Source of the DNA: Candidatus Gottesmanbacteria bacterium UBA5942
Lineage (GTDB): Bacteria; Patescibacteriota; Microgenomatia; UBA10105; UBA927
Length of the DNA: 61,332 nucleotides
Direction of reading: 5' to 3'
Assembly (NCBI GenBank): GCA_002430725.1
Contig: DJCU01000042.1
Coordinates: 1-61,332 of the forward strand
The notes below the pieces were generated by a model. The model did no database searches. It had not been told where the DNA came from and worked only from the letters and a program-made list of their open reading frames with translations. Both the position numbers and the translations under genes were made by a program. This document shows, piece after piece, positions 38,915 to 56,565 of this stretch (within the stretch, counting starts at the first letter, position 1; each line of letters opens with the position of its first letter).

Positions 38915-38944
38915 TTGACACGTATGCCTACATGACACTACTAT
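38915..38944 (+). promoter_or_regulatory. candidate promoter 1 of the novel cluster
   Basis: TTGACA (38915..38920)-N18-TACTAT (38939..38944). Confidence 0.45.
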
Positions 38945-38975: not shown

Positions 38976-39005
38976 TTGACAACCTATCTCATTGTTCGCT
39001 ACAGT
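38976..39005 (+). promoter_or_regulatory. candidate promoter 2 of the novel cluster
   Basis: TTGACA (38976..38981)-N18-TACAGT (39000..39005), just upstream of ATG 39016. Confidence 0.45.
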
Positions 39006-39015
39006 GAAGTTTAGT

Positions 39016-39348
39016 ATGAATACAATAAATCAAAGTTTTGAAAGTAGGCTTACCGATATTGTCCTCAAAATTGAAAAATCTGGTTGGACTGATGAGGACA
39101 AAGAGGCGATGTATGCCAAGATAAGTGAATATCTTCATGAGTCTGTGCTTCCCGTTATTTTGCAGTACGCTCCCAGCGAAGAAGTGAAGGCGATGGCCGC
39201 AGATGCTTCCAAGGCTACGGTTGATGCATATATTGCGCTTATGAAAAAGCCGTTAAGCGATCCTAAGATGTACGAAGAACTCAATAAGACCGTACAGGAA
39301 GTGTTAGACGATGTAGAAACTGCCCTTTCCAAAGGAGGGATAGTATGA
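39016..39348 (+). CDS. small acidic helical protein, family S (S1)
   Basis: Paralog of S2 and S3 (IEKSGWTDEDKEAMYAKI..VLPVILQYAPSEE). Its stop overlaps the next start (ATGA at 39345..39348). Confidence 0.7.
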   Translation: MNTINQSFESRLTDIVLKIEKSGWTDEDKEAMYAKISEYLHESVLPVILQYAPSEEVKAMAADASKATVDAYIALMKKPLSDPKMYEELNKTVQEVLDDVETALSKGGIV

Positions 39349-39869
39349 GCGAACAATCTATGGGTGAGGCCGCAATGAACCCGAGAAGTCGGGCAATTGC
39401 ATATCTTGAGATGAAGCAGAGTGGAAGATTTCAGGGTGGTCGGGAAAAGAATATTAAAACTCCGATTGCTCCAGAAAAAGTTCGGCGTGCAGCTCCGTTG
39501 GTAGAGACGGTGGAGGCCTACGAGCAAATGATTGATAAAATGGGACAAAAGGGTTTTGAAGGTTCACAACAGATGCTTGCAGACTTGCGTCCGGCAGCTT
39601 ACGAGGCGGCACAGGCAGTACAGTTTGGTGCGAGACTTGCGGATATTGCCCTTACCATCGCTATTCCATTTACGAGGATAGGACTTTTGGCAAAAGCGGG
39701 TGGTATATGGGCAACGATGCGATATCGTCCAGCGGAGTGGGCGGTTGGGAAAATGGCGAAAATTGGCGGTGCAGTCGTAACTTCAGAAGCAGTGGCACCT
39801 ATCGTCAATAAAATACTGCATGGCGGAGAACGGGTAAAACCAGGTGAGCCAGCTATGGCAGCCGCATAA
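39345..39869 (+). CDS. partner protein with central hydrophobic Gly/Ala-rich hairpin (B1)
   Basis: AAAGGAGGG RBS lies inside the S1 3' end. Hydrophilic N-terminus, then IALTIAIPFTRIGLLAKAGGIWATM and KIGGAVVTSEAVAPIV. Confidence 0.7.
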   Translation: MSEQSMGEAAMNPRSRAIAYLEMKQSGRFQGGREKNIKTPIAPEKVRRAAPLVETVEAYEQMIDKMGQKGFEGSQQMLADLRPAAYEAAQAVQFGARLADIALTIAIPFTRIGLLAKAGGIWATMRYRPAEWAVGKMAKIGGAVVTSEAVAPIVNKILHGGERVKPGEPAMAAA

Positions 39870-39872
39870 GCT

Positions 39873-40184
39873 ATGGAACAGCGACTTGATGACATCATCA
39901 CGCGTATAGAAGCATCTTCATTGTCTGCAGCCGAAAAAGCGCAGCTTTATGCTGCAATTTCCGGAGGATTGAAAGGCTCTGTGTGGCCGGTACTGATGAA
40001 GCTTGCTCCTCCAGGCGAAATCGATGAAATCCTCAAAGAAACTGATGAGAAGAAAAAAGTAGAGCGGTATAACACACTCATTTCAGGCGTTGTTGATACC
40101 GACAGCTCCTATGCAGAAATAGAAGAAGTAATGAATAAATTATTGGATGAAGTAGATGCTGCCTTGAAGGAGGAGCAGATATGA
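39873..40184 (+). CDS. small acidic helical protein, family S (S2)
   Basis: MEQRLDDIITRIEASSLSAAEKAQLYAAISGGLKGSVWPVLMKLAPP, clearly homologous to S3. It starts 3 nt after the B1 stop. Confidence 0.75.
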   Translation: MEQRLDDIITRIEASSLSAAEKAQLYAAISGGLKGSVWPVLMKLAPPGEIDEILKETDEKKKVERYNTLISGVVDTDSSYAEIEEVMNKLLDEVDAALKEEQI

Positions 40185-40678
40185 CCGAAGTAACTGAAAC
40201 ACCGGTACAAGCGGAGAAAGAGCCAGGAGCAGTCAAGCGTGTTGCTGAGCGGATTAGCACGTTTCTTAAAGAAACATACACCCTTAAAGGGGCAACGGCA
40301 AAAGAAGTGGCGAAATACAACACGTTGTATGCCAGTTTTACTCCGTCACAACGGGAAGAGTTGGTTGCATTTAATGAAAAAGCAATTCATAAAACCGCTA
40401 TGCGTAAGGTTGTCCGCAATTGGGTTATCACCGGTGCGGGACTTGCCGCAGGGTGGGGGATTGCGACTGGTGGACTACCTGCTATGTGGGCATTTATGAC
40501 GAAAACCGCGCCTGTTGCAATTGGTACTGGGCTAGAAGCTATACGAACATGGATGTTTGATCCTCAAAAAACGTTGCTTATAGACGTACCGAATAAATTA
40601 TCTGATATCGCAAAAAATATTGGTGACTTTTTTGCTAAGGGGCCGGGATTACCATCTAAAATTAAAATTATTCCCTAA
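40181..40678 (+). CDS. partner protein with GxxxG-rich hydrophobic hairpin (B2)
   Basis: ATGA overlap with S2 and an AGGAGG RBS. Hydrophobic segment VITGAGLAAGWGIATGGLPAMWAF. Confidence 0.7.
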   Translation: MTEVTETPVQAEKEPGAVKRVAERISTFLKETYTLKGATAKEVAKYNTLYASFTPSQREELVAFNEKAIHKTAMRKVVRNWVITGAGLAAGWGIATGGLPAMWAFMTKTAPVAIGTGLEAIRTWMFDPQKTLLIDVPNKLSDIAKNIGDFFAKGPGLPSKIKIIP

Positions 40679-40705
40679 TAGTGGGGTGCTTATAAAGGAG
40701 GCGGC

Positions 40706-41035
40706 ATGGAAGATAAGTTAAAAGCAATCGTAACACGAATAGAACAAAGCAAGCTTTCTGAAGAAGAAAAGGCAGAGCTTTATACCACAATATCTGAAGG
40801 GCTTCAGGTAACGGTCTGGCCGGTGTTACTCAAATACATGCCGAAAGAGCAGCTTGATTTCCTCGCTGCAGATCCAAAAAGTAGAGTGACAGTAGAAAGT
40901 TACTCGCAGCTCATTACTGATACCATTAAAGATGGTCAGGCGCTTACAGAAATCGACACACTCATGAATGAAGTGCTTACAGAAGTAGATAAAGCACTTT
41001 CAGAAGAGGGGATAGATCAAGTAAAGCCAGTATAA
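40706..41035 (+). CDS. small acidic helical protein, family S (S3)
   Basis: MEDKLKAIVTRIEQSKLSEEEKAELYTTISEGLQVTVWPVLLKYMPK, with an AAAGGAGG RBS. Confidence 0.75.
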   Translation: MEDKLKAIVTRIEQSKLSEEEKAELYTTISEGLQVTVWPVLLKYMPKEQLDFLAADPKSRVTVESYSQLITDTIKDGQALTEIDTLMNEVLTEVDKALSEEGIDQVKPV

Positions 41036-41063
41036 TCTTGCCCAGCAAAGAAAGGATACATCT

Positions 41064-41561
41064 ATGTCAGAAACCGCAATGAACATGGAACCACCAAAAA
41101 AGGGATTGAAAGAGGGATTGCGTCGTGCGTTTACAGTGTCTGGTGCTAAAGAAAAATGGTATCAGGATCACAAAGAAATGGTGGCAAAATACGCAGATGT
41201 GCATAATGGCTTGACCGATGAACAACGATCGGCTGTAATGGCACAAATTGAATCTGACGCCACGAAATCAGCAAAGATTGCAGTCGGAAAACGTACGGGA
41301 GCACTCGCATTGACCTCTGCGGTCGTAGGAACTGCCGGTCTATTGATTGCTAAGCCTGATTTGGCCAGACGGTTTATGGAATGGACACCAAAGATTCTCG
41401 GCAATGAGTTGAGTACTGGAAAAGTCGGAAAAGCAGTATTTACTGGTGCTGACAAAGCACACTCATTTTTAGCAGAGGTATGGACAAGGGCTGGAAGTCT
41501 TAAAGAAGCTGCGTTAGCGCGCGGGAAAGCCTTGTTTACCAAGACTCCGCCAGCAGCTTAA
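41064..41561 (+). CDS. partner protein with hydrophobic segment (B3)
   Basis: Same size (165 aa) and layout as B2. Hydrophobic segment GALALTSAVVGTAGLLIA. Confidence 0.65.
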   Translation: MSETAMNMEPPKKGLKEGLRRAFTVSGAKEKWYQDHKEMVAKYADVHNGLTDEQRSAVMAQIESDATKSAKIAVGKRTGALALTSAVVGTAGLLIAKPDLARRFMEWTPKILGNELSTGKVGKAVFTGADKAHSFLAEVWTRAGSLKEAALARGKALFTKTPPAA

Positions 41562-41647
41562 TTCTACTTCAGTTGGTATAGCCATTCATTTATATTCATG
41601 GTTGTCTCCAATAGACTTTTGTGTTCTACTGGAAAGTAGAGGAAACT

Positions 41648-42325
41648 ATGTCAGAAATTCCCAAAGGCACACAATTTGTCGGTCAGGCAGATGCACGAAA
41701 ATTGCATACAGAGCGGGTAAAACCTGCCGAAACGAAACTATCCCCCGAACAGCAAAAGGTTGCTGAGGTCATGCAAGAAAGTGGGGAAGTGCTGGAAAAA
41801 AAAGTTGTAGACGCGAGAGAAGAGGCTGGGAAAAAACTTCAAGGGTTACATGGAAAAGAGCTGGTCGATGCAGGTAAGAAACAAATGGTTCGAGGACTTT
41901 TGGATACGGTAAAAGCGCAAGTAAAATGGGCTATTGGTGGTGGCATTATTGGCGCAACTCTTGGCGCAGCCGGGAGTAGGGTGTCTGGTGGAGATATGCA
42001 TGATGCTGCCGGGCTGTTAGGTGCAACATGGGCAAGTGGCTCAGCTGCTATTGGTGGTGAGGTGTCAGCACCCCTTGCATATAATAAGAAAGTGGCAGGT
42101 TCTCAGGAATTAACCAAAGTGGGGTGGTCCGATTGGTTAATTTCGGTAGGTTCGAGATTTGCCATTGGGACGCCTATTACACTGTTAACCATGAGATATC
42201 TCCCCTTGGCCGCTGTACAACTTGAAAGTCATGTTTTTCAAGCCATTCTTAATCCGATAACCGTTCGAGGTCTACGAAATGTCATGACCGGCTTACGAGA
42301 GTTGAAAAAGGGAGTTTCAAAATGA
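41648..42325 (+). CDS. glycine-zipper membrane protein (D1)
   Basis: MSEIPKGTQF start behind a GAGGAAA RBS. Hydrophobic segments WAIGGGIIGATLGAAGSRVSGG and AAGLLGATWASGSAAIGG. Confidence 0.7.
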   Translation: MSEIPKGTQFVGQADARKLHTERVKPAETKLSPEQQKVAEVMQESGEVLEKKVVDAREEAGKKLQGLHGKELVDAGKKQMVRGLLDTVKAQVKWAIGGGIIGATLGAAGSRVSGGDMHDAAGLLGATWASGSAAIGGEVSAPLAYNKKVAGSQELTKVGWSDWLISVGSRFAIGTPITLLTMRYLPLAAVQLESHVFQAILNPITVRGLRNVMTGLRELKKGVSK

Positions 42326-42603
42326 GTTTGAAACAAAAAATTAAAGATACTACCCTGTTTACTGATGAGGATAAGATTGCTATCCTTGCTGCAGTCGACA
42401 CCTACGCGTCAGCGGATATAAAAGCGTTAGAGGGCATCATTGATGAGTTTGATATGGTGCACAGTAAAGCTGTTTCTGAGTATAAAAAATCAGTTTCAGA
42501 GGTGCTTCATGATATTGTCATAAAATCCTCTCTTGCTGACCAAAAGAAGTTACAAAGAGCAGCTTCTCTGGTGCAGAGCGGGCTAGACGAACTTCTTCAG
42601 TAA
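42322..42603 (+). CDS. small acidic helical protein, family S (S4)
   Basis: ATGA overlap with D1. N-terminal IKDTTLFTDEDKIAILAAV motif. Confidence 0.7.
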   Translation: MSLKQKIKDTTLFTDEDKIAILAAVDTYASADIKALEGIIDEFDMVHSKAVSEYKKSVSEVLHDIVIKSSLADQKKLQRAASLVQSGLDELLQ

Positions 42604-42610
42604 TTTTTTC

Positions 42611-42637
42611 TTGTCATCATCGTATGTTTGCTATAAT
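42611..42637 (+). promoter_or_regulatory. candidate internal promoter (extended -10) giving a near-leaderless ABC1 mRNA
   Basis: TTGTCA-N15-TGC-TATAAT. The hexamer ends 6 nt before ATG 42644 and there is no SD sequence in between. Confidence 0.4.
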
Positions 42638-42643
42638 CGTTGT

Positions 42644-44812
42644 ATGAATGAACAAGCGCCGAAACCGTTGCGCCATAGGGAGGTTCGTGTTTTGGAACAG
42701 CCCTCCACACCGCCCAAAAATTTAGAAGCGTCTTCGAAATTGCTTCACGCGTTAGAGCAGCAAGATGAGAAAACAATTAGAGAGGGGACAAATGCCCTAG
42801 TAGGCGAAGTGAGCAAAGATTTTGCCCAACATCATGCGCCGCTTACACCTCAGGAAACGTCATCACTTGGTCAGAAAGTAAAAGAGGCGGCTGCTAGCGC
42901 CGGAAAGCGGGTTTCAGAAACTGTTTTTTCACCGGAGATGCAGAAAGATATGGCGGAGTATAAAGATATCGTCTCCGACATAGAAAAAACATATAAGTTT
43001 TCTTCCATCGCACCCGAATTTTATGAAGCTGCGGACAAAATTCGCACGAATACAGTCTTGGAAACGCTCAGTATCTACGGTATTCAACACGCAACAAACC
43101 CCGGACATATCGAAAAGGCTGTTGCCGAAGTCGTGGGGTTTTCAGCCGCGAAAGGGAACTGGGATCGCCTAAAGCGAGCAATGACGATTGCCAAGGAAAC
43201 ATTACCCTATGTGTATGTATTGGGACTTATACCACCGCTTGTGAATGGCAGAAAGATAAGTAAACAGTTTGAAGAAAGCACCATGAAGCTCCGTTCTGCT
43301 ATTAACACTCGGGTTGCGCAGTCGGTGTTTATGCGTGATTTTGAATTTATTCATGACAAGCCGGCATCGGAAATTATGAATATTGTCGATAAAGGAAAAC
43401 AGGCGACTGTCGATCTTATGCGAATAACATATAAAGGGATGTTGCCCAAAATAGCTGCGTTAGGGGCAATTACGACTACCGAGTTTTTGATAGCACCGCC
43501 TGCGGGTATTTTGGGGCTCATTCGTATTCCTTTCCTTGCGCGGCATGGAGAACAAACCGCGCGGAAAATATTAAAAGCGCGGGCAGAAAATTTGAAACGT
43601 AAAGATCTTATCGATGCGCGCGTTATGTCCTCATTGCAGAGTTTGGAAGTGGTGCGTACGACAGACAGTATGGTGAACGCCATGGAAGAACTGCAGAGCA
43701 ATATGTCCAAAAGCGATGAGGTTGATGTTGCGGCAGATTCTTCACGAAGTGACAGAGACAAAAAGGAAGCATATTACGGCCTGGGTTATACGTACGGCAT
43801 CCCAATCGTTGCCGCAGGGTGGGAAGCACTTATGAATTGGGATGCGCTCACCAATAAAAATCCGAAAGCTGATCGTCTCAGCAACCCATCACTCAACGTG
43901 ATGCTCGCGGGCACAAGTACTATGGCACTGGAAGGGATTAATGGCGCGATGATAGAAGAAATGGTGCATGATTATACCGATAAAATACAGCCCGCACTTC
44001 AGGATATTCGGAGGATGAATGAGCTACTAGGACCATACGATCAAGTGGACACTCCAGAAGGCCCACGAGAACAATCGCGAGTACCAGTAGAAAGCTTATC
44101 AAACTTTGATATATCAATTCGTAATTTGCGATTTAAAAACATTCTTCACAACGTTTCGATGGATATTCCTCAAGGGTCGTTTGTGACAATTAAAGGTCAG
44201 TCTGGGATAGGAAAAACTACTTTTTTGCGTCATATGTTGGGGCTTTTTAGCGCGGAGGAGGGGAATGTATCCTACGGTGGGCATGATCTTAATTCAATCA
44301 AAAAATATGGAGAACATTCGATATATTCGCAATTGGCGTATGCCAATCAGAATCCTCAGTATTTTGAAAATATGACCCTTCGGGAAAACCTCTTGTTGTG
44401 GACCAAAAAACAGGTGGATACTGATAAAGTGACACAGGTGCTCCACGACTTACATTTAGATCACATTGCCGACCGTATGGATAGCAATGTGAAGCATTTT
44501 TCAGGAGGAGAGCTTCGGCGGATAGGTATTGCAAGGGCGTTACTCAAAGATCCCAAAGTGCTATTCCTTGATGAACCCACCGCTAACCTTGATGAGGCAT
44601 CTGCAAAGCAGGTGTTGGATATTGTGAAACAAATGCGGAAAACAAGACCAGACATGACAGTTGTCGCAGTGACGCACGATCCTAGCTTTGAAGGAATTGC
44701 AGAAAAGATTATAGACTTTGCAGAAGTGAATAAACCTACGGACATGAAAGCAGAATCATTGGGAAACCGCCAAGTATTTTATGCCTCAAGCGCATCTCCC
44801 TCGAAGAAGTAA
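42644..44812 (+). CDS. atypical ABC transporter fusion protein (N-terminal hydrophilic domain + weakly hydrophobic exporter-like TMD + NBD), ABC1
   Basis: Walker A GQSGIGKTT, Q-loop ANQNPQ, signature FSGGELRR, Walker B LFLDEPTANLD, H-loop VTHD. The middle region resembles a type I exporter TMD (RVAQSVFMRDFEFIHDKPASEIMNIVDKG). Confidence 0.85.
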   Translation: MNEQAPKPLRHREVRVLEQPSTPPKNLEASSKLLHALEQQDEKTIREGTNALVGEVSKDFAQHHAPLTPQETSSLGQKVKEAAASAGKRVSETVFSPEMQKDMAEYKDIVSDIEKTYKFSSIAPEFYEAADKIRTNTVLETLSIYGIQHATNPGHIEKAVAEVVGFSAAKGNWDRLKRAMTIAKETLPYVYVLGLIPPLVNGRKISKQFEESTMKLRSAINTRVAQSVFMRDFEFIHDKPASEIMNIVDKGKQATVDLMRITYKGMLPKIAALGAITTTEFLIAPPAGILGLIRIPFLARHGEQTARKILKARAENLKRKDLIDARVMSSLQSLEVVRTTDSMVNAMEELQSNMSKSDEVDVAADSSRSDRDKKEAYYGLGYTYGIPIVAAGWEALMNWDALTNKNPKADRLSNPSLNVMLAGTSTMALEGINGAMIEEMVHDYTDKIQPALQDIRRMNELLGPYDQVDTPEGPREQSRVPVESLSNFDISIRNLRFKNILHNVSMDIPQGSFVTIKGQSGIGKTTFLRHMLGLFSAEEGNVSYGGHDLNSIKKYGEHSIYSQLAYANQNPQYFENMTLRENLLLWTKKQVDTDKVTQVLHDLHLDHIADRMDSNVKHFSGGELRRIGIARALLKDPKVLFLDEPTANLDEASAKQVLDIVKQMRKTRPDMTVVAVTHDPSFEGIAEKIIDFAEVNKPTDMKAESLGNRQVFYASSASPSKK

Positions 44813-44836
44813 GCTGGGTAGGTTACAATAGGGTAT

Positions 44837-47074
44837 ATGACGGTCGAACGCTCCGTAAAACTACCGTTTCAACCAGAGCGACTTACAAAGGTCGACTCGC
44901 TTCCTTTGGTTTCGCCGAGCACAGTGGCATCAGTAGAGCCAATTGTTGCACAAGTAGTGGAAGGAAAATCTCCCGATACAAAGGATGTTTCTAAGATGGT
45001 CACAGGAGTGGCCAAAGACTTACGCGCCCAAGGTATTCCTGTGTCATCTGAGGATATACGTGAGGTACAGAATCGCGCAGATAAGAGTCTTTCAATATCG
45101 TCATCTAATCCTTCATATCAAGAAAGCGAATCAATGCCGGAGTCAGAAGCATTACCCGATATTAATCTCGATGAATATAAAGCTGTTGTGGAAGACATGG
45201 TGCACAACTATGGTGTCGATACAAAGGAGTGGGGGAAAATTAGTCATGTGTTAGGCGTGACCACCCTGATGGGAGATTTTTTGAGCGGGATGCAGCGACA
45301 ACGTTTTACGACACAAAAAGGTCGTATGCTTATGACGCATCATTTTGGTAAGGTTGCTCGAGAGTTACACCTCCAGAAATTAAGTCCAAAGGGGTTTGTT
45401 GAAAACGTGCCGCGTATGCTCAAAGAGAAGGGGAAAGGATTAGGAAAACTTGTCGTTGAAAGCGCGTGGCCATTTTTAGCAAGCCCTGTGTACTGGCTTA
45501 TGGAGCGTCAGGCGGGGAAGATGGCAGGGAAAATGTTTATGACAGAGCGAACACGTTTGCAGGAGCAAGTAAATAACCGTATCGCGGATTCATTATTTAT
45601 GCGTAATTTTGAATACCTCAATAACACACCATCGGGAGAAATGATGGAGATCATAAATCGTGGGAAAGACGCGACTATTGATCTCATGGCAGCGGTGTAT
45701 GAAGAGCTCATTCCTTTGAAATATGCCATGTGGGGCTCTATCGGAAAACAGCTTATGATAAACAGGTGGGATGCCGCAGCATCACTTGTGAAAAAGGTGA
45801 TACTGGAGGGTAGGGTGAAACCGAACGCACAGCGTATACAACGACAAAATGATGAAGCGCTCAAGCGGTGGGATATCGTCAATACGAAGCTCCTTACGAC
45901 ACTACAAGGGCTTGAAACAGTGCGGACGACTGGTAATGCAGAAGCGGGAAGTGATGTATTGTATCACGCGCTTGCAGAACGTGACTTTGTCGAAGCGGGC
46001 GGTATGCGAGAGAAGCGAAAGCAGGACGTGGCGATGAATAGGCTGCTTGACGTTATGGATATTGGTATCCCAGTGACGACCGAGGGTCTGAAGTTGTGGG
46101 GCGAGATACGAAATGGCGTCAATCAACTAGGAAATCCGTATACAGCATCGGATATGTTTAACAGCATGGCAGACGCTTGGTTTCGTATCACTGGATCTCA
46201 GGCAGAGCAGCAGTATTTGCGGCAAATGTTACTTCAAAAAACGCATTTATTTGTGAACCGGATTATTCCCGATATTCAGGATATTAAACGGATGGAGGAA
46301 GTGTTGGGGTCTTACGATCTTCTTGATCATCCACAAGGTATAAGGGAACAGGCGAGGATGCCTGTTTCTGAACTTAAAAACTTTGATATTAAAGTAGAAA
46401 ATCTCACATTTAAGCACATATTACATGGAGTTAATCTTGATATTCCACAAGGGTCTTTTGTGACAATTAAAGGGCCATCCGGCATTGGTAAAAGTACGCT
46501 ATTCCGTCATCTGGTAGGGCTTTATAGTGGGGAAGAAGGGCAAGTGCGGTACGGAGGAGCTTCGATTGATACGATTAAAAAATATGGCGACCAGTCGTTG
46601 TTTACCAAAATTGCGTATGCCAATCAAAACCCACAGTATTTTGAAGACATGACATTACGGGAAAATTTGTTGTTATGGACAAAAGAAGAGATAGGGGATG
46701 ATCGAATACAGAGCGTCCTTCGTGATCTAAAACTGGATCAGATAATCAACAGGCTTGATACGAAAACAAAACATTTTTCCGGTGGTGAAATGCGGAGAAT
46801 CGGTATCGCGCGTGCGTTATTAAAAGACCCAAAGGTATTGTTTTTGGACGAGCCCACTGCAAATTTAGATGCAGTATCTACTCGTCAGGTGATGCACATT
46901 ATCGAGGAGCTTCGGAAAAATAGACCGGATATGACAGTGGTTGCTATCACCCATGATCCAGTATTTGAAAAGATCGCTGAAAAAATAGTGGATTTTGAAA
47001 AAATAAACAAAAAACCTGAGGGAATATCGTTAGGAGACCATCAGGTGCTGGAAGCAATAGCGAAGCCCAGCTAG
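44837..47074 (+). CDS. atypical ABC transporter fusion protein, paralog of ABC1 (ABC2)
   Basis: Walker A GPSGIGKST, FSGGEMRR, LFLDEPTANLD, ITHD. It is collinear with ABC1 over the TMD-like and NBD regions. Confidence 0.85.
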   Translation: MTVERSVKLPFQPERLTKVDSLPLVSPSTVASVEPIVAQVVEGKSPDTKDVSKMVTGVAKDLRAQGIPVSSEDIREVQNRADKSLSISSSNPSYQESESMPESEALPDINLDEYKAVVEDMVHNYGVDTKEWGKISHVLGVTTLMGDFLSGMQRQRFTTQKGRMLMTHHFGKVARELHLQKLSPKGFVENVPRMLKEKGKGLGKLVVESAWPFLASPVYWLMERQAGKMAGKMFMTERTRLQEQVNNRIADSLFMRNFEYLNNTPSGEMMEIINRGKDATIDLMAAVYEELIPLKYAMWGSIGKQLMINRWDAAASLVKKVILEGRVKPNAQRIQRQNDEALKRWDIVNTKLLTTLQGLETVRTTGNAEAGSDVLYHALAERDFVEAGGMREKRKQDVAMNRLLDVMDIGIPVTTEGLKLWGEIRNGVNQLGNPYTASDMFNSMADAWFRITGSQAEQQYLRQMLLQKTHLFVNRIIPDIQDIKRMEEVLGSYDLLDHPQGIREQARMPVSELKNFDIKVENLTFKHILHGVNLDIPQGSFVTIKGPSGIGKSTLFRHLVGLYSGEEGQVRYGGASIDTIKKYGDQSLFTKIAYANQNPQYFEDMTLRENLLLWTKEEIGDDRIQSVLRDLKLDQIINRLDTKTKHFSGGEMRRIGIARALLKDPKVLFLDEPTANLDAVSTRQVMHIIEELRKNRPDMTVVAITHDPVFEKIAEKIVDFEKINKKPEGISLGDHQVLEAIAKPS

Positions 47075-47085
47075 TGTATTTATTT

Positions 47086-47093
47086 GCTATACT
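47086..47093 (+). promoter_or_regulatory. candidate extended -10 element
   Basis: TGC-TATACT sits in the same TTTGCTATA[AC]T context as 42627..42637 and ends 11 nt before ATG 47105. Confidence 0.35.
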
Positions 47094-47104
47094 CTTTTAT
47101 ATAT

Positions 47105-48112
47105 ATGGATGAAATGCCGGAAATTCCACAAAAAGAACGAGTGGTGATGTCTCCCGAGCTTGCTGAGCGTATTGATCATGCACGGATGGAGATAGCAGCG
47201 CAAGGGCAAGATCCTCAGGCAGTGGCAGGCAGAAATATTGCCGAAATGGGATTTATGAAAGCGTTATGGGAGACAGCGAAGCCACACACCAAAAAATTGC
47301 AGGAAATACAGTTTAAGCAGATAAAGGCGCAAGGAGCTGCGGTGCTGAGCCTTATCCCCATTATCGGTGAAGGAAAAGCATTTTTGAGTACAGTGGGTAT
47401 TACCAAAGGATTTGAAAAAGGAGTACAAACATTTAAAGCAGAAAAAGGACTCCGAAAGCTTAAGGCAATCGGGAAAGGGCTAGGGAGGGCGATGGCAGAA
47501 AACGCACCGGAAGCAGTGAAGGCTGGATCGTTATATGAAAAAGCACGCGCGGGTAGTGTAGTCGCAAGAGAACAAGCGGCAGCAGCGGTGAGAGCTGAAA
47601 ATATTGCAAAAAATATTGCGGTGAGTTCTTACGAAACTGCCCGCGATGCACAGAAAGCGATGAAGGGTGCTGAGAAATGGAATAAAGCTGTGACGAAAGT
47701 TGCAATAAATGAAAGTCTTGATGCAGCTGCTGCAGCTGCAGGAAAAACAGGCATGGGGAAGTGGGCGTTTAAGGAATTTGAAAAAAGAAAATTGTCCGGT
47801 ATGAAAATATTGGGAAATCCTGAGAAACGCGCAGGAATTTGGCATTTTCTCGATTTAACTCCTGATGTACCAGGTTGGCTTTCTCTTACTACTGCAGCTG
47901 GTGAAATGGTGGGAGTCCACGGAATTGATGTAATCCCTGCGGTATTACAGATGGGGAAAAATACGATTGATCAGGTGGCAACGTATGGAAAACTCACGAA
48001 GGACGTCTGGAACTTGGCAGTGACACGTGTGACGGGTAAGGGGAAGGATGTAGCGCGGGCGGCAGCAGTATTTGAGCCAAGACCACCAGTCTCAGCAGGA
48101 GGAATGGCATGA
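47105..48112 (+). CDS. hypothetical protein D2 (Ala/Lys-rich helical middle, hydrophobic IPxxG segments)
   Basis: MDEMPEIPQK (compare D1 MSEIPKG). Hydrophobic segments AAVLSLIPIIGEGKAF and GIDVIPAVLQMG. Confidence 0.65.
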   Translation: MDEMPEIPQKERVVMSPELAERIDHARMEIAAQGQDPQAVAGRNIAEMGFMKALWETAKPHTKKLQEIQFKQIKAQGAAVLSLIPIIGEGKAFLSTVGITKGFEKGVQTFKAEKGLRKLKAIGKGLGRAMAENAPEAVKAGSLYEKARAGSVVAREQAAAAVRAENIAKNIAVSSYETARDAQKAMKGAEKWNKAVTKVAINESLDAAAAAAGKTGMGKWAFKEFEKRKLSGMKILGNPEKRAGIWHFLDLTPDVPGWLSLTTAAGEMVGVHGIDVIPAVLQMGKNTIDQVATYGKLTKDVWNLAVTRVTGKGKDVARAAAVFEPRPPVSAGGMA

Positions 48113-48369
48113 ACAAAAAAATCGCATTAGTTGATCTTATCGAAGTAAGTGTTCTTTTGACCGCTGAACAAAAGTTGTTGCTATTGGATGAGTTACCGGA
48201 GTTTAATGAAAAACAAGTTGCCGCATTGGGTACATTTCTTGCCATGGAACAACAATTTATCAACGAACATAAAGATGAAATATTGACGAATATGAAAGAG
48301 ATCTATAATGACCTTCATCTTGATGAGGCACAAAAAAATCAGGTATTTGTGGGGACAGGGAAACCGTAA
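48109..48369 (+). CDS. small acidic helical protein, family S (S5)
   Basis: ATGA overlap with D2 and an AGGAGG RBS. Motif IEVSVLLTAEQKLLLLDEL. Confidence 0.7.
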   Translation: MNKKIALVDLIEVSVLLTAEQKLLLLDELPEFNEKQVAALGTFLAMEQQFINEHKDEILTNMKEIYNDLHLDEAQKNQVFVGTGKP

Positions 48370-48467
48370 GATAACTATTAACTTTTCACTTTTGACTATT
48401 AACCAGAAGTTCCCGGGTACTTTTTTTAGGTCAACTGTTACCAGTTAAGAGTTAAAGGTTAAAAAGT
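48370..48467 (+). repeat. intergenic copy of a TTAAC-rich palindromic repeat
   Basis: GATAACTATTAACTTTT and GACTATTAACCAGA are identical to 56436..56452 and to part of 56453..56473 inside the 23S intron. Confidence 0.6.
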
Positions 48468-49382
48468 ATGGCCGAAAACTATAGTCAGCAATATCGAGGT
48501 AAAGTAATCCACGTCTATCTCGGAGAAGGGAAAGCAGACCCGCCAAAACCAGAGGTAAAAAAAGCAGACACCTTGTATCACAAGCACATGCAAGAGTTGT
48601 TTGACATTATTGCCCCTGAAGCTGTTTCGGAGCGCATCGATGCGGTCAATACACAAGGTGAATTAGCGACAGCAACTGCGGAATTATTGCGGGAAAAATC
48701 ATCAGCGAGAGAGCGGTATAAAGAACACAAGGATTTTAAGCGGTTTGTTCATGAGTTAGATGGAGAATGGCGCGGAAGAGAGCTACCGCATAAATTAGAA
48801 CGGTTTTTGCTCTTTAGTGTGATGGGAAGCTTTTATACCGGTCTTGATTTTGTATCCAACTATCTTGCTGAAAAAACATTTCTTCGGAAAGACATAACGA
48901 AAATTGGTCTGGGAAAGTCTGGTATTTCATTGGATGCAGCAGACACCAATGGTAACCGTAAAGCGCTTAAAGCCGGGTGGGAGATGCTTTCTGATAAGCT
49001 TATTGGTCTGTTTTCTGATAAATCAGTCAAAGAAACGACAAATCGTGATGATGTGGCATTTGTGTCGCCAATATCTGACGCGTTGGCATCAGTCGGTAAC
49101 ATCGCAGTGTCGCTTGCTACCCCGAGTGATAAAAAGCCTATCCATTGGTTATTAAATTCGATTATTAACCCAGGTTCTATAGAGGCAGGGTTTCGTACGC
49201 TTTCTGCAATTCCATTGGCTGGAGCCAAAGTAGAAAATATGTATATAGCCCTCAATAAGCAGTTGTTGAGAGGGGAGGGTGTTTTACCGTATGGTTTTGA
49301 TGTGGCGCTTACTATGCTTGCTGCCAAAGAAACACAAAAGAAAGATGTGGAATTAGTGTTAGAGCACGTTGCGCAAAAATAG
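48468..49382 (+). CDS. hypothetical protein, family L (D3)
   Basis: Shares the blocks YTGLDFVSNYLAEKTF and IINPGSIEAGFRTLSAIPLAGAKV with D4, D5 and D6. Confidence 0.65.
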   Translation: MAENYSQQYRGKVIHVYLGEGKADPPKPEVKKADTLYHKHMQELFDIIAPEAVSERIDAVNTQGELATATAELLREKSSARERYKEHKDFKRFVHELDGEWRGRELPHKLERFLLFSVMGSFYTGLDFVSNYLAEKTFLRKDITKIGLGKSGISLDAADTNGNRKALKAGWEMLSDKLIGLFSDKSVKETTNRDDVAFVSPISDALASVGNIAVSLATPSDKKPIHWLLNSIINPGSIEAGFRTLSAIPLAGAKVENMYIALNKQLLRGEGVLPYGFDVALTMLAAKETQKKDVELVLEHVAQK

Positions 49383-49383
49383 T

Positions 49384-49701
49384 ATGAAACAAAATATCAC
49401 TCAATTTATCGATATAGTGAGGGAGAGTAAGGTATTAAACGCCGAGCAGAAGAGGGAGCTATTGGATAATCCAGCACTTTTGCCGGAAACATATCGTGAG
49501 CGGATTGCTGAAATACTTACAAACTATAATGATCGGGCACGTGCAAGAGAAATGCAGCTGGGAAGCCGAGTGAATGATGCGACAAAGCGATTTGAGCAAG
49601 CGCTTGATGAGGTTGGAGTTGCTCCCGAGGAGAAGCAACAGCTGTTAGAAAAATTGAGGCAACACACTGCCACATTGACCATGGCAGCGCCCGCGTCTTG
49701 A
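49384..49701 (+). CDS. small helical protein, family S (S6)
   Basis: Its ATG lies 1 nt after the D3 TAG. Motif VRESKVLNAEQKRELLDNP. Confidence 0.65.
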   Translation: MKQNITQFIDIVRESKVLNAEQKRELLDNPALLPETYRERIAEILTNYNDRARAREMQLGSRVNDATKRFEQALDEVGVAPEEKQQLLEKLRQHTATLTMAAPAS

Positions 49702-49737
49702 CCGTAATACGCTAAACAGAGTACTCTGATAAGAGTT

Positions 49738-50823
49738 ATGCAACACAAGGAACAATCATTTTCTCCTCCAAAAGAGTCGTGGTCTTCAGGCGCCCCAAAG
49801 CCTGAGACTGCGCAATCACGTGAGAAATCTTCGTTAAAAAAACTCGGGGATGTGGTCGGTGACGTGCTACGAGATGTGAGTACGGCAAACCAGATGGCTG
49901 CAGATAAATTTGACGGTGATAGCGCGCTTATGCGTACTGCCCGCGGTTTTGTGACGACAGGTATCGGAGTTGGGCTAGAGAAATCCATGAATTTTGTATG
50001 GGACAAGGTGTGGCAGGGTGATATTCCGTTTTATGACAAATCCAAATTCGGGACAGGGATGGCGGAAGCGATGAATAGATTTGCCCAAAAAAGCGACTTT
50101 AACGCCCGCATGTATCACCTGATGAAAGAGGGAACGCAGGATTTGTCGCTTGCCATATTTTATAATTTTCTCGCGTTCCGCTCGCAGCCATTACTCCCTA
50201 AAGCAGAGCCAAAACATTTACTCACCGCATTGACTGCAGATGCTATGGAGGCGTTTGTAAAGCCAATTTCGCCAAATCTGCCGGGTAAAGTGCAATTTGA
50301 TGCACAACGGGGGACAAACGCGATAGTGACAGAGCAAATCGAGGCGCTTGATGACAAGATGGCTCAATTTGCTTCGAGATCCTACTATGACAGAGTAAAG
50401 GATGTACAAGTGTCTCCGATGAGTGATCAAATAGAAAAATTAAAAGAGAGAAAAAAAGCGTTACAGGGAAGGATAGGGGAATTGCATGTCCCAGAGGAGG
50501 GGGGAAATCTCGAGAAATTTATCCATAAGTTTGTCGATATTTCAAATCCTGTAACAGTATTGGGAATTGATATGATTAGTGGAGGTCTTGCTACCCTTAT
50601 TCGTAACTTCAAGGAAGTACGAAAGGTACGGAAAGAAAAAGGCGGATTGGAAGGGAAAAAAGTGTTCATGCCAAAAAAAGAGAATTGGAAAGATCGCGGA
50701 GGTGATCGGAAGCCGTATAACGAAAAGCGTGACTATAGTAAAGATAAAGTATATGTAGGCAAGTCAAATTGGAAAGATAAAAAAATACAGGAGGAATATG
50801 ACCTCAAAGTCGATGATACATAA
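49738..50823 (+). CDS. hypothetical protein, family L (D4), Lys-rich C-terminus
   Basis: TTGIGVGLEKSMNFVWDKVW and ISNPVTVLGIDMISGGLATL blocks. Confidence 0.65.
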   Translation: MQHKEQSFSPPKESWSSGAPKPETAQSREKSSLKKLGDVVGDVLRDVSTANQMAADKFDGDSALMRTARGFVTTGIGVGLEKSMNFVWDKVWQGDIPFYDKSKFGTGMAEAMNRFAQKSDFNARMYHLMKEGTQDLSLAIFYNFLAFRSQPLLPKAEPKHLLTALTADAMEAFVKPISPNLPGKVQFDAQRGTNAIVTEQIEALDDKMAQFASRSYYDRVKDVQVSPMSDQIEKLKERKKALQGRIGELHVPEEGGNLEKFIHKFVDISNPVTVLGIDMISGGLATLIRNFKEVRKVRKEKGGLEGKKVFMPKKENWKDRGGDRKPYNEKRDYSKDKVYVGKSNWKDKKIQEEYDLKVDDT

Positions 50824-51097
50824 AAAAATTCAGGCAACGCGGTTGTTTTCAGATGCACAAAAAGTACAACTTTTGGTGCAGCTTACTGATGCAAGTGAGG
50901 ACGATAAAAAGAAGCTCGAGGAGGGCATTGATGCGTTTGACCGTGAGTACAAAGAAGCCATGGGAAAGCGGGGAGAAGAGATACTGGAACTCCTTACTAT
51001 GATAATGAAGGACATGCCCGAAGAAGAACGAAAAAAGAACCAAGACACGATTGACGAAATTGTGATGGGTACGGCTATTCTTCAGCCACTCAATTAG
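50798..51097 (+). CDS. small acidic helical protein, family S (S7)
   Basis: AGGAGG RBS 4 nt before the ATG. It overlaps the D4 end by 26 nt. Motif IQATRLFSDAQKVQLLVQL. Confidence 0.65.
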   Translation: MTSKSMIHKKIQATRLFSDAQKVQLLVQLTDASEDDKKKLEEGIDAFDREYKEAMGKRGEEILELLTMIMKDMPEEERKKNQDTIDEIVMGTAILQPLN

Positions 51098-51193
51098 CTC
51101 CGGATAGGTAAATAAATCTCTACTTGCTATAGGACTAGTGTTGTGGTACACTCCTGTCTAAACTTCAGCATAAGGCTGAATTTTTGTAATTTT

Positions 51194-51976
51194 ATGAACG
51201 TAGAAACTAAACCACAACGCCAATATTCCGCCTCAGAACAGGGGTTTCAGCGGATTATGAATGAAGGTCCTCACGCCCCCAAAAATGGCGGTGAATACAA
51301 ATCCGGAGATTTCGCAAAGCGCGTATTCTTTAACACCTCGATGCTTGTCGGGGGATTGGGTATCGATTTAGCAGAAAGTGCCGTTGCCAAATGGGCGATT
51401 AACAAGGTATTTGATCCTCGCATCGATGGCCTTAAAGGGACAATATCCCAGTTGGGTCACGCAAAGCCGGAAGGATTTGAAGACAAAATTAGCGCCGCAA
51501 AAGACAGTATCCGCACACAGCATGCTATAAAAGAGGGTGTCAAGTTTATCGAAGAGTGGGGTTCTGACTCTGCTTACGTAGGTGCCACCAACGCGCTTGC
51601 ACGCACGCTCACCGGTGTGCCTGAAGCAACCTATGTTAAAGGAACGGCTGAAGTCGTTTCTGACTGGGCAAATGCAATCATGCAGGTATTCGGCGGCGAC
51701 AAAAAAGTGACGCTGTTGAAATACAAAGGACTCCCACTGTTTGCCACCGAAATGCAGAATTTTGTCAATCCGACCGATGTCGAAGCGGTATTTCGCTTGC
51801 TTGCCGAAATTCCGGGTGTCGGATGGGTGAAAAATAAGCTTGACCACACGGTTGAGCACTCAAAAGTGGTCAAATACGCCAATATTGCTGCCTCAAAAGG
51901 GTTACTTGGCTACCACATTACGAACGCCGGTCAAAAGGCGATCGATAGGGCTGTGGCAGAAGCGCTCGCCAAATAA
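51194..51976 (+). CDS. hypothetical protein, family L (D5)
   Basis: GGLGIDLAESAVAKWAINKVF and FVNPTDVEAVFRLLAEIPGVGWV blocks. ATG 51194 is preferred to GTG 51143. Confidence 0.65.
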   Translation: MNVETKPQRQYSASEQGFQRIMNEGPHAPKNGGEYKSGDFAKRVFFNTSMLVGGLGIDLAESAVAKWAINKVFDPRIDGLKGTISQLGHAKPEGFEDKISAAKDSIRTQHAIKEGVKFIEEWGSDSAYVGATNALARTLTGVPEATYVKGTAEVVSDWANAIMQVFGGDKKVTLLKYKGLPLFATEMQNFVNPTDVEAVFRLLAEIPGVGWVKNKLDHTVEHSKVVKYANIAASKGLLGYHITNAGQKAIDRAVAEALAK

Positions 51977-52053
51977 TCTCCCTAAATTCTTGTTTGTTAT
52001 AGGCTAATTTCTATGGTATAATTTTACATAATGCCATAGGGCATTCTTTTTGT

Positions 52054-52896
52054 ATGACGACCAAAGAAACACCACAAGCCATGCTCAAAGACCCAGTCGC
52101 AAGCTGGAAGCAGGATTTGGTTGCCCACGAGCGGAAGCAGGCAGAAAAGCTCTATCAGGTGGGCGAGTTTTCCCCGTATACCAAAGAGGCGAGGCCGATT
52201 AAATGGGATGCGTTTCGTGACGCAAGTTACGAATGGATATCGAGTCCTGGTACATTCCTCAAAAATATCGGAACGCATGTCCGGAATATCGACACGGATT
52301 TTCGTGGCGGGCGGGATTATGGAAACGCGGGCGAACGTCTCGAGCGGGTGAAAGCGTATGCGGGGATCATCGCACTATTTACCGCGTTTGATGCTGCTAC
52401 AAGCATGCCTCTCATTGGTCTGAAGAAGACAGAAAGAAAAGGAGAAGGACTTACCGCGGATGATCACCGATATAATGCCAATCTTCTTTCATTTATGAAA
52501 CTTATCGATGTACTAAATGATAAATATGCAACAGCATTGGGTAATATGTACGTGGAGGATAAAACGGGGAAGCGGGGATTTATCCATGAGATGTCAGATA
52601 AAGGCGCAGACACCATACAGACAGGATTTGATAAGACAAATGATTTGGTAAATGGTGCAACCCTTGAAGGATATCTTCGTATCATATCCCAGATACCGGT
52701 TGCTGGAGCATTGTTTGAGCAGGGAGTGACCCGAATTTCGGGCTGGCAGGAGAAATCTTCTCTTCATACAGCAACAGGAAAAATGATCTACATGGCGTTG
52801 GGTATTTATATAAAACATATGCGCAGAGCAGTCACTGAAGATGGTAAATCCGCAAAGTTGATATCCCCGGATGTCATTGCCAGATTTGGATTGTGA
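52054..52896 (+). CDS. hypothetical protein, family L (D6)
   Basis: LVNGATLEGYLRIISQIPVAGALF block. A TGG-TATAAT extended -10 lies at 52014..52022 upstream. Confidence 0.65.
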   Translation: MTTKETPQAMLKDPVASWKQDLVAHERKQAEKLYQVGEFSPYTKEARPIKWDAFRDASYEWISSPGTFLKNIGTHVRNIDTDFRGGRDYGNAGERLERVKAYAGIIALFTAFDAATSMPLIGLKKTERKGEGLTADDHRYNANLLSFMKLIDVLNDKYATALGNMYVEDKTGKRGFIHEMSDKGADTIQTGFDKTNDLVNGATLEGYLRIISQIPVAGALFEQGVTRISGWQEKSSLHTATGKMIYMALGIYIKHMRRAVTEDGKSAKLISPDVIARFGL

Positions 52897-53086: not shown

Positions 53087-53113
53087 AATCCCGCATAGAA
53101 GGCGGGATTTTTT
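53087..53113 (+). terminator. rho-independent terminator-like hairpin
   Basis: AATCCCGC-atagaag-GCGGGATT followed by a T-run. Confidence 0.55.
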
Positions 53114-56147: not shown

Positions 56148-56565
56148 AGACCGTGATGAGATAGACTCCATCACAAAGAGCTGTCGGTTTTCCGATGTTT
56201 TATTACGAACCCCATTGAGAATAATAAAAACTGTTATAAAAAACGAAAACACCCCGCCATCATTATATTTATGATGTCGGCGGGGGAAATCTGACTATTT
56301 GCTGGAAACTCTGAGTATCCGGTGGTACTCCGATCATATCGGAGTAATAATCCATCCGGTGCAGACAATCAGCAGGGAAGGCTTTTTTCCACAAAATGTG
56401 GAGGAGAGAACCCTCAGAGACTACATGTCAGACGGAGATAACTATTAACTTTTGACTATTAACAATTAACCAGATAATTCTGGTTAAAAGTTAACTGTTC
56501 ATTGTTAACTGTTGTCATCGAAGATATAGTCCGAACTGCATAGCGATATGCAGGTAACACAATTG
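56148..56565 (+). mobile_element. ORF-less group I intron in 23S domain V
   Basis: The exon reads GAACGTCGTAAGACAGT | intron | TCGGTCTCTATCC, versus the continuous E. coli GACAGTTCGGTC. The intron ends in G. The guide GCUGUC (56180..56185) pairs with GACAGU via a G-U wobble. P7 is GACUA (56293)/UAGUC (56527) in the AAGAUAUAGUCC context. P9 is CUGCAUA-GCGA-UAUGCAG. Confidence 0.8.
56436..56513 (+). repeat. TTAAC-rich long imperfect palindrome inside the intron (second copy of the 48370 repeat)
   Basis: GATAACTATTAACTTTTGACTATTAACAATTAACCAGA-taat-TCTGGTTAAAAGTTAACTGTTCATTGTTAACTGTTGTC. The two arms pair over almost the whole length. Confidence 0.6.

Follow-up and report, generated by a model that had tools for sequence, protein, structure and literature searches.

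Three tandem two-gene cassettes, each encoding a small S protein followed by a larger B protein, lie at positions 39016-41561 of a stretch of contig DJCU01000042.1 (GenBank assembly GCA_002430725.1) from Candidatus Gottesmanbacteria bacterium UBA5942. The whole stretch (61,332 nucleotides, positions 1 to 61,332 of the forward strand) is referred to here as the window, and corresponding loci in related genomes carry the letter L and three digits. The open reading frames (ORFs) of the initial annotation, which was made from the sequence alone, all stand, as do its three cassettes and the length of 165-174 amino acids (aa) that it gave for the B proteins. S and B are an undescribed, lineage-restricted pair of protein families within an undescribed genomic island, for which a function is inferred below. 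The six genes are as follows.

S1, 39016..39348, + strand: 110 aa, acidic (isoelectric point, pI, 4.6), all-helical, S family.
B1, 39345..39869, + strand: 174 aa, basic (pI 9.7), hydrophobic stretch in mid-protein; ATGA overlap with S1.
S2, 39873..40184, + strand: 103 aa, acidic S-family paralog.
B2, 40181..40678, + strand: 165 aa, basic, Gly/Ala-rich hydrophobic stretch; ATGA overlap with S2.
S3, 40706..41035, + strand: 109 aa, acidic S-family paralog, the best conserved of the copies (99% identity to its counterpart in genome UBA6580).
B3, 41064..41561, + strand: 165 aa, basic; conserved 78-aa N-domain and a variable, mosaic C-terminal part that includes the hydrophobic stretch.

The S and B protein families

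As judged from sequence comparison, S1, S2 and S3 are unambiguously full-length paralogs. The similarity between S2 and S3, originally noted over about the first 45 residues, is significant and in fact runs the full length of the proteins (44.7% identity across all 103 residues; BLASTP E 3e-27), and S1 is related in the same way to S3 (38.8% identity, E 7e-21) and to S2 (32.7% identity, E 2e-13). The ATG start assigned to S1 is backed by a conserved 'MNT' in orthologs. All S proteins are acidic, with pI values of 4.4-4.6. Modelled with AlphaFold2 from 50 homologs, S3 gives a confident structure (predicted local distance difference test, pLDDT, 87; predicted template-modelling score, pTM, 0.70) with five to six helices; Foldseek searches of PDB and BFVD with this model returned only matches with E>1 and template-modelling (TM) scores below 0.45, and a search of PDB sequences with the S profile reached only designed helical repeats at E>0.005. 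The N-terminal helix-turn-helix unit of S (residues 5-35) also occurs as a repeat of about 35 residues with the pattern SF[IL]R.LI.RIK.SD[ML].D.[DE]K..LYQRIRNYL. Two to five tandem copies of this unit are found behind signal-peptide-like hydrophobic N-termini in the proteins P0225 (464 aa) and P0235 (104 aa), and tandem S-S fusions exist as well (P0143 and P0002).

Among the B proteins, which are basic (pI 9.7-9.8), pairwise BLASTP comparisons are not significant, the best being that of B2 with B3 (E 0.01). Comparison of ortholog profiles, however, identifies B2 and B3 as homologs (hhalign 97.9%, E 5e-13, 119 columns), while B1 shows no significant match to either B2 or B3 profile (hhalign E 0.06-0.09) and has only its architecture in common with them. 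The description of the locus as one unit repeated three times thus holds for S1-S3 and for B2/B3, and reduces for B1 to a similarity of layout. The hydrophobic stretches quoted for the B proteins are likewise present, but the hairpin that they had been proposed to form is not established, the Kyte-Doolittle 19-mer maxima reaching only 1.67 in B1, 1.18 in B2 and 1.74 in B3. B N-termini follow the pattern M-[ST]-E...P-[KE]. An AlphaFold2 model of B3 is all-helical and of low confidence (pLDDT 54), which makes it unusable for a fold search; a model of this kind is as expected for a protein that may need a partner or a membrane. Neither S nor B has a significant PDB match by sequence profile. A match of the B profile to Staphylococcus protein A (E 4e-6) was rejected, since it arises from a 24-residue helix-cap motif ('L-T-D-E-Q-R...') summed over tandem domains, with no single stretch being significant.

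In agreement with the initial annotation, the genes overlap by ATGA at two of the three S/B junctions (S1/B1 and S2/B2), where a ribosome-binding site (GGAGG, 7-8 nt upstream) is embedded in the S gene, and the 4-nt overlap is kept in at least six orthologous loci (L002, L003, L008, L010, L011 and L013). The cognate order S1-B1, S2-B2, S3-B3 is also retained in L002-L005, L008 and L011, and the charges of the partners are complementary (pI 4.4-4.6 for S versus 9.7-9.8 for B). In the more distant genomes represented by L015 and L016, the island is dotted with classical toxin-antitoxin (TA) modules (MazE/PIN, Phd/PIN, AbiEii and MNT/HepT), which sit between cassettes and other island genes; in the loci examined, none is seen directly after an S gene. 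Furthermore, a natural in-frame S-B fusion of 223 aa (P0172) is found on three contigs from two data sources; in it, an S domain (residues 1-96) precedes a part that is paralogous to the product of the B gene immediately upstream at that locus (BLASTP E 1e-25). A partner- or chaperone-type relationship between S and B is therefore supported indirectly, by the conserved coupling, the cognate pairing, the insertions that avoid the place directly after an S gene, and the natural fusion.

Conservation and selection across related loci

The S-family profile matched 151 proteins in a collection of 5.8 billion proteins, and an exhaustive HMMER search through 1.84 billion cluster representatives gave 94 matches, nearly all of them stand-alone proteins of about 103 aa; the B2/B3 profile matched 22 proteins. 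Named matches belong to Gottesmanbacteria or Patescibacteria, some records being mislabelled as Gammaproteobacteria, and a search of viral contigs found no S relatives. As far as these sequence collections reach, both families are confined to the Gottesmanbacteria lineage, and the same syntenic island is present in all 11 genome loci. Cassette number, whose comparison between relatives had been proposed at the outset, ranges from one to five S genes per locus: one in L006, L007, L009 and L010, three in the window, L002-L005, L011 and L013, four in L008, and five in L012. In L006 (10275-10875), the B homolog that follows the single S gene is split by a frameshift into two overlapping ORFs of 64 and 144 aa. 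L007 and L009 have a single gene of 187-190 aa at this place, and the split copy in L006 is a pseudogene or else results from an assembly error.

Tandem duplication followed by divergence, as originally proposed, is supported for S1-S3 by BLASTP and for B2/B3 by profile comparison. A search for direct DNA repeats among the three cassettes found no real ones, and since repeats at the DNA level are gone, the duplication is evidently ancient. The diversifying selection that had been proposed in addition is contradicted by the comparison of the window with UBA6580, the closest genome (locus L002), in which S1, B1, S2, B2 and S3 show ratios of nonsynonymous to synonymous substitution rates (dN/dS) of 0.01-0.09 at protein identities of 86-99%; these ratios are approximate, because the synonymous rate dS between the orthologs is near saturation at about 1-2. 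Orthologs were used for this purpose, rather than paralogs, because dS is saturated among the latter at 33-45% protein identity. The neighbouring genes for thioredoxin reductase, a ferredoxin-reductase-like protein (FNR) and glutamate dehydrogenase (GDH) have dN/dS values within the same range. By these measures, S1, B1, S2, B2 and S3 are clearly real genes under purifying selection.

The exception is B3, with a dN/dS of 0.26 in the same comparison. Whereas its 78-residue N-domain is 90% identical between the window and UBA6580, its C-terminal part (the hydrophobic stretch and the tail) is only 33% identical. The C-terminal part of the window protein is instead 62% identical to that of L005, the N-domain of which groups with other genomes. 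The B3 C-terminus is therefore a mosaic, an exchangeable module carried on a conserved N-domain. S3 is 99% identical to its UBA6580 counterpart and so has not changed along with the variable part of B3; conservation of S3 and of the B3 N-domain, together with exchange of the C-terminal part, fits a recognition of the N-domain by S.

The surrounding island and its ABC half-transporters

The cassettes form the front end of an island of about 14 kb (39.0-52.9 kb), all genes of which are co-directional, and of which the initial annotation missed everything downstream, including a reversed pair, B4/S4, in which the larger gene comes first. Besides the three S/B cassettes and B4/S4, the island contains two ATP-binding cassette (ABC) half-exporters, three pairs of a large basic and a small acidic protein, and the orphans L8 and L9. 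It is flanked by the GDH gene on one side and by tRNA-Ala, 23S and 5S genes on the other. Features beyond the cassettes are listed below.

Second promoter-like site, 38915-38944: pattern match in a consensus scan.
Promoter-like site TTGACA-18-TACAGT, 38976..39005, + strand: just 5' of S1; pattern match in the same kind of scan.
B4, 41648..42325, + strand: 225 aa, basic, Gly-rich; first gene of the reversed pair.
S4, 42322..42603, + strand: 93 aa, acidic, helical; second small-protein family; ATGA overlap with B4.
ABC1, 42644..44812, + strand: half-transporter with a canonical C-terminal nucleotide-binding domain (NBD) and a divergent, weakly hydrophobic N-terminal region of about 480 aa resembling an exporter transmembrane domain (TMD).
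ABC2, 44837..47074, + strand: ABC1 paralog, half-transporter.
L5 + s5, 47105..48369, + strand: L5 of 335 aa, basic; s5 (48109-48369) of 86 aa, acidic; ATGA overlap.
L6 + s6, 48468..49701, + strand: L6 (48468-49382) of 304 aa; s6 at about 49384-49701; large-then-small pair.
L7 + s7, 49738..51097, + strand: L7 of 361 aa; s7 (50798-51097) of 99 aa, homologous to S4.
L8, 51194-51976, + strand: orphan protein.
L9, 52054-52896, + strand: orphan that closes the island; weak L6 paralog.
Terminator-like hairpin, 53087-53109: after L9, at the end of the co-directional block.
TA/defence insertions in relatives: L015 1339-9538; L016 1-9988 and 12305-17401; L005 416-1049; L006 8474-9171; L009 8074-8783.

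The window carries a bacterial 23S rRNA gene split by a group I intron (56189-56553; Rfam RF00028, 84.9 bits), as is typical of bacteria of the candidate phyla radiation (CPR), together with a 5S rRNA gene and tRNA genes, and the S3 protein is also present on a contig of 1.17 Mb. Because of this rRNA and tRNA content, of homologs named as Gottesmanbacteria or Patescibacteria, and of the occurrence of S3 on the 1.17-Mb contig, the window is identified as part of the chromosome of a CPR bacterium (Gottesmanbacteria), and a mobile element is excluded.

ABC1 and ABC2 are the only island proteins with a recognisable relative, and only through their ATPase domains: no other island protein is related to any curated family or solved structure, and searches with S1-4, B1-4, L5-9 and s5-7 against Pfam, NCBIfam, PADLOC and PHROGs gave only sub-threshold noise. 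The NBDs match PF00005 (E 1e-32), contain the Walker A motif, ABC signature, Walker B motif and H-loop (GQSGIGKT, FSGGE, LFLDE and VTHD), and are nearest to those of ABCB-type and bacteriocin exporters. ABC2 is probably the heterodimer partner of ABC1. The N-terminal regions of about 480 residues do not match the Pfam ABC_membrane family (PF00664) and are almost without strongly hydrophobic segments (ABC2 Kyte-Doolittle maximum 1.17); a profile of these regions, free of the NBD, matches only the ABCB6 TMD, in the region from intracellular loop 1 through transmembrane helices 3 and 4 to intracellular loop 2 (ICL1-TM3-TM4-ICL2), and does so weakly (E 0.04-0.06). Each protein also has a hydrophilic N-terminal extension of about 190 aa, which in the ABC1 of the window contains no Cys. 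A C39 peptidase domain was not found in either protein, the family matches being of the ABC_tran/AAA type only. Only Gottesmanbacteria carry this ABC subfamily, with three paralogs in a row in some relatives. Ten S-anchored loci, the window included, have at least 6 kb of downstream flank, and in 7 of these, members of this lineage-specific subfamily are encoded no more than 10 kb downstream; several S-anchored loci are limited by the contig.

B4 has no significant sequence similarity to B1-3. The B4/S4 pair is present in the window (41562-42643), L003, L004 and L006 and absent from UBA6580 (L002, 10860-11039), where ABC1 directly follows B3, which points to recent gain or loss of one cassette. 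S4, s5, s6 and s7 make up a second small-protein family; a candidate relationship of S to S4, s5 and s6 came down to a 23-column match of an N-terminal helix-cap motif (E 0.002, probability 12%), and homology is not established. Duplication has affected the large island proteins too, as shown by the weak paralogy of L6 and L9 (BLASTP E 7e-4, 23% identity over about 180 aa). In relatives, the island is a hot spot for TA and defence modules inserted between cassettes (MazE/PIN, Phd/PIN, VapBC-like, AbiEii, MNT/HepT, HEPN and ParE).

The non-homologous proteins B1-4, L5-7 and ABC1-2, none of which has a signal peptide, share an N-terminal signature that is acidic and rich in Pro, M-[STA]-E ... 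(h-x-G-x-G-x-x)-P-[KE]. The proteins that carry it lie within 39345-52896 of the window, and it recurs in the orthologous loci; island N-termini are richer in Glu (2.8 Glu within the first 25 residues versus 1.0, p 1.6e-8), and Glu occupies position 3 in 17 of 45 island proteins versus 4 of 56 (p 2e-4). It could reflect processing, targeting or translation initiation.

Candidate functions and comparison with known systems

We propose, tentatively and at somewhat less than an even chance, that S serves the N-domain of the cognate B protein as a dedicated partner or chaperone, and that B is a membrane-associated client possibly handled by the adjacent ABC exporter. Each cassette would yield a cognate two-protein complex through roughly 1:1 synthesis, in which S, a soluble, acidic, all-helical cytoplasmic protein, would bind the conserved helical N-domain of about 80 residues of its B protein. 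The basic B protein, lacking a signal peptide, would associate with or insert into the membrane by its short Gly/Ala-rich segment and variable C-terminal tail, the C-terminal end being the variable and presumably exposed part. An ancient tandem duplication in Gottesmanbacteria produced the cassettes, which purifying selection has kept. The small acidic proteins would maintain the B and L clients in a competent state in the cytoplasm, and a heterodimeric, ABCB-like exporter could plausibly insert or export the B proteins and the larger L proteins. In its most extended form, this proposal would make the whole island (39-53 kb) an undescribed, Gottesmanbacteria-specific delivery system, in which an atypical heterodimeric ABC exporter and two families of small acidic helical chaperones (S1-3; S4/s5/s6/s7) insert or export basic, membrane-active clients (B1-4 and L5-9) with exposed C-termini that are exchanged between strains; we regard this larger scheme as speculative and improbable.

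Several observations weigh against the proposed partnership and its connection to export. S resembles no known chaperone in sequence or fold (Pfam, NCBIfam, Foldseek and a PDB profile search), and the S-B fusion could be a population-specific accident. The hydrophobic segments of B are borderline for a transmembrane helix, with the B2 peak at just 1.18, and their flanks are net positive on both sides, which leaves the topology ambiguous; because of these two properties, a hairpin or membrane-spanning segment can be put forward for B only conditionally. The putative link between S/B and the ABC genes is one of synteny, and three loci (L009, L010 and L012) have no such ABC gene within 6-10 kb downstream, and housekeeping genes come next after L013, the locus with the fusion. 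In addition, the ABC proteins bear the same acidic, Pro-rich N-terminal signature as their putative clients, a point against reading the signature as an export signal.

The loci without a nearby ABC gene, L009, L010, L012 and L013, speak for a different explanation, in which the S-B pairs are structural or regulatory membrane-associated envelope complexes (e.g. scaffolds or anchors) that are independent of the ABC genes, with the co-location reflecting a conserved lineage-specific island. Strong purifying selection and vertical inheritance would be in keeping with such complexes, as would the hypothetical status and predicted membrane location of many Microgenomates-enriched families (PMC6744442). 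The ABC genes downstream in 7 of the 10 loci with enough flank and the truncation of several loci by contig ends argue the other way, and there is no positive evidence for a specific structural role; this explanation appears unlikely, though a real prospect. The adjacent exporter pair, with NBDs near those of bacteriocin and ABCB exporters, would find a place in a bacteriocin or polymorphic-toxin locus, with B as an exported membrane-active antagonist carrying glycine-zipper-like segments, S as its immunity protein and ABC1/ABC2 as the dedicated exporter, and the small-residue-rich hydrophobic segments, the several tandem paralogs, the mosaic B3 C-terminal part and the variation in cassette number from one to five could be understood in the same terms. 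However, a C39 peptidase domain is missing from the ABC proteins and the ABC1 extension of the window is free of Cys, a double-glycine leader is not visible on inspection of B, and the B proteins are 165-174 aa long with a conserved 78-aa N-domain. Overall dN/dS is low, and S lies upstream, is translationally coupled and in one lineage is fused to B, an arrangement that would be odd for a toxin and its immunity protein. The weightiest point is the lack of co-variation, S3 being 99% identical where the B3 C-terminal part is 33% identical, and we judge a bacteriocin-type locus improbable. Between the substrate/chaperone and toxin/immunity modules offered by the initial annotation, the former is the better of the two, helped by the fusion, and the latter is disfavoured by this lack of co-variation and by the absence of any family match.

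A tandem, type II-like TA system, with B as a membrane-damaging toxin and S as an acidic protein antitoxin, would account for the overlap of a small acidic upstream gene with a larger basic downstream gene, for the hydrophobic segment in B and for the company of plentiful classical TA modules in the island of relatives. Against this, Pfam, NCBIfam and PADLOC contain no toxin, antitoxin or defence family that S or B matches, and the S3 model shows neither a DNA-binding fold nor any known fold. Furthermore, synteny between the GDH and ABC genes is strict, the order of paralogs is kept in 11 or more genomes at 50-90% protein identity, selection is purifying as in housekeeping genes, and the family is confined to a single lineage with no relatives on viral contigs, whereas genuine TA families tend to be mobile and to spread across phyla; a TA system is accordingly distinctly improbable. 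The gene order, the overlap and the layout of B (N-domain, transmembrane segment, variable tail) are also reminiscent of an extracytoplasmic function (ECF) sigma/anti-sigma pair, in which B, crossing the membrane once, would use its cytoplasmic N-domain to sequester S, a small transcription factor. With S an acidic protein of 103 aa (pI 4.4) that has no Sigma70_r2/r4 or helix-turn-helix family match and no fold match, and with no anti-sigma domain match in B, this idea is barely tenable.

Protein families enriched in CPR bacteria are for the most part hypothetical, with a membrane location predicted for many of them (PMC6744442). A literature search on Gottesmanbacteria and ABC transporters gave no match. 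Orphan islands are common in CPR genomes, but the S/B island is defined unusually well and is open to testing: a tiny CPR genome of about 1.2 Mb gives over about 14 kb, more than 1% of its length, to a conserved island under purifying selection, and S/B with the ABC genes offers a defined, testable entry point into CPR protein dark matter. Were the delivery system real, it could act at host-cell contact or in the membrane and lipid handling of these lipid-auxotrophic, ultra-small bacteria; were S/B merely an orphan membrane complex, it would still be a clean new protein-family pair worth a family entry.

Compared with known systems, ABC1 and ABC2 are like the type IV-fold exporters ABCB6/Atm1 in their canonical NBD, in having a putative membrane domain ahead of the NBD, and in a stretch like ICL1-TM3-TM4-ICL2 that aligns with ABCB6, and differ from them in lacking a PF00664 match, in their very weakly hydrophobic membrane segments, in the hydrophilic N-terminal extension of about 190 aa and in their restriction to Gottesmanbacteria. 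Type II TA operons resemble the cassettes in the overlap of an acidic small upstream gene with a basic downstream gene, and genuine TA modules do occur in the island of relatives, but S/B has no family match and is syntenic, vertically inherited, lineage-restricted and housekeeping-like in its evolution. Class II bacteriocin loci similarly combine tandem small genes beside an ABCB/PCAT-like exporter with small-residue-rich hydrophobic segments and variable copy number; the island, in contrast, has no C39 domain or double-glycine leader, its B proteins are large with a conserved N-domain, and its S genes are upstream, coupled and not co-varying.

Secretion chaperone- or adaptor-client pairs are known from the type III secretion system (T3SS), where a class II chaperone serves a hydrophobic translocator, and from the type VIIb secretion system (T7SSb), where the helical targeting factors Lap1/Lap2 serve LXG toxins. 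The S/B pairs differ from these in having no sequence or fold similarity to them, in a CPR host and in that the sole ATPases of the island are ABC half-transporters. Pfam matches to LXG, WXG100 or the EssC FtsK/SpoIIIE ATPase are absent from the island genes (a scan for an EssC-type ATPase or T3SS genes did not extend to the whole window), and among solved structures Foldseek finds no WXG100 or TPR fold for the S3 model (the rest of the genome was not scanned for a T3SS). The likeness lies in the organisation: in both, the gene for a small, acidic, all-helical protein adjoins and is translationally coupled to that of a larger client, the client has a conserved helical N-terminal region followed by a variable or hydrophobic C-terminal part, and several such paralogous pairs stand beside a dedicated ATP-driven exporter.

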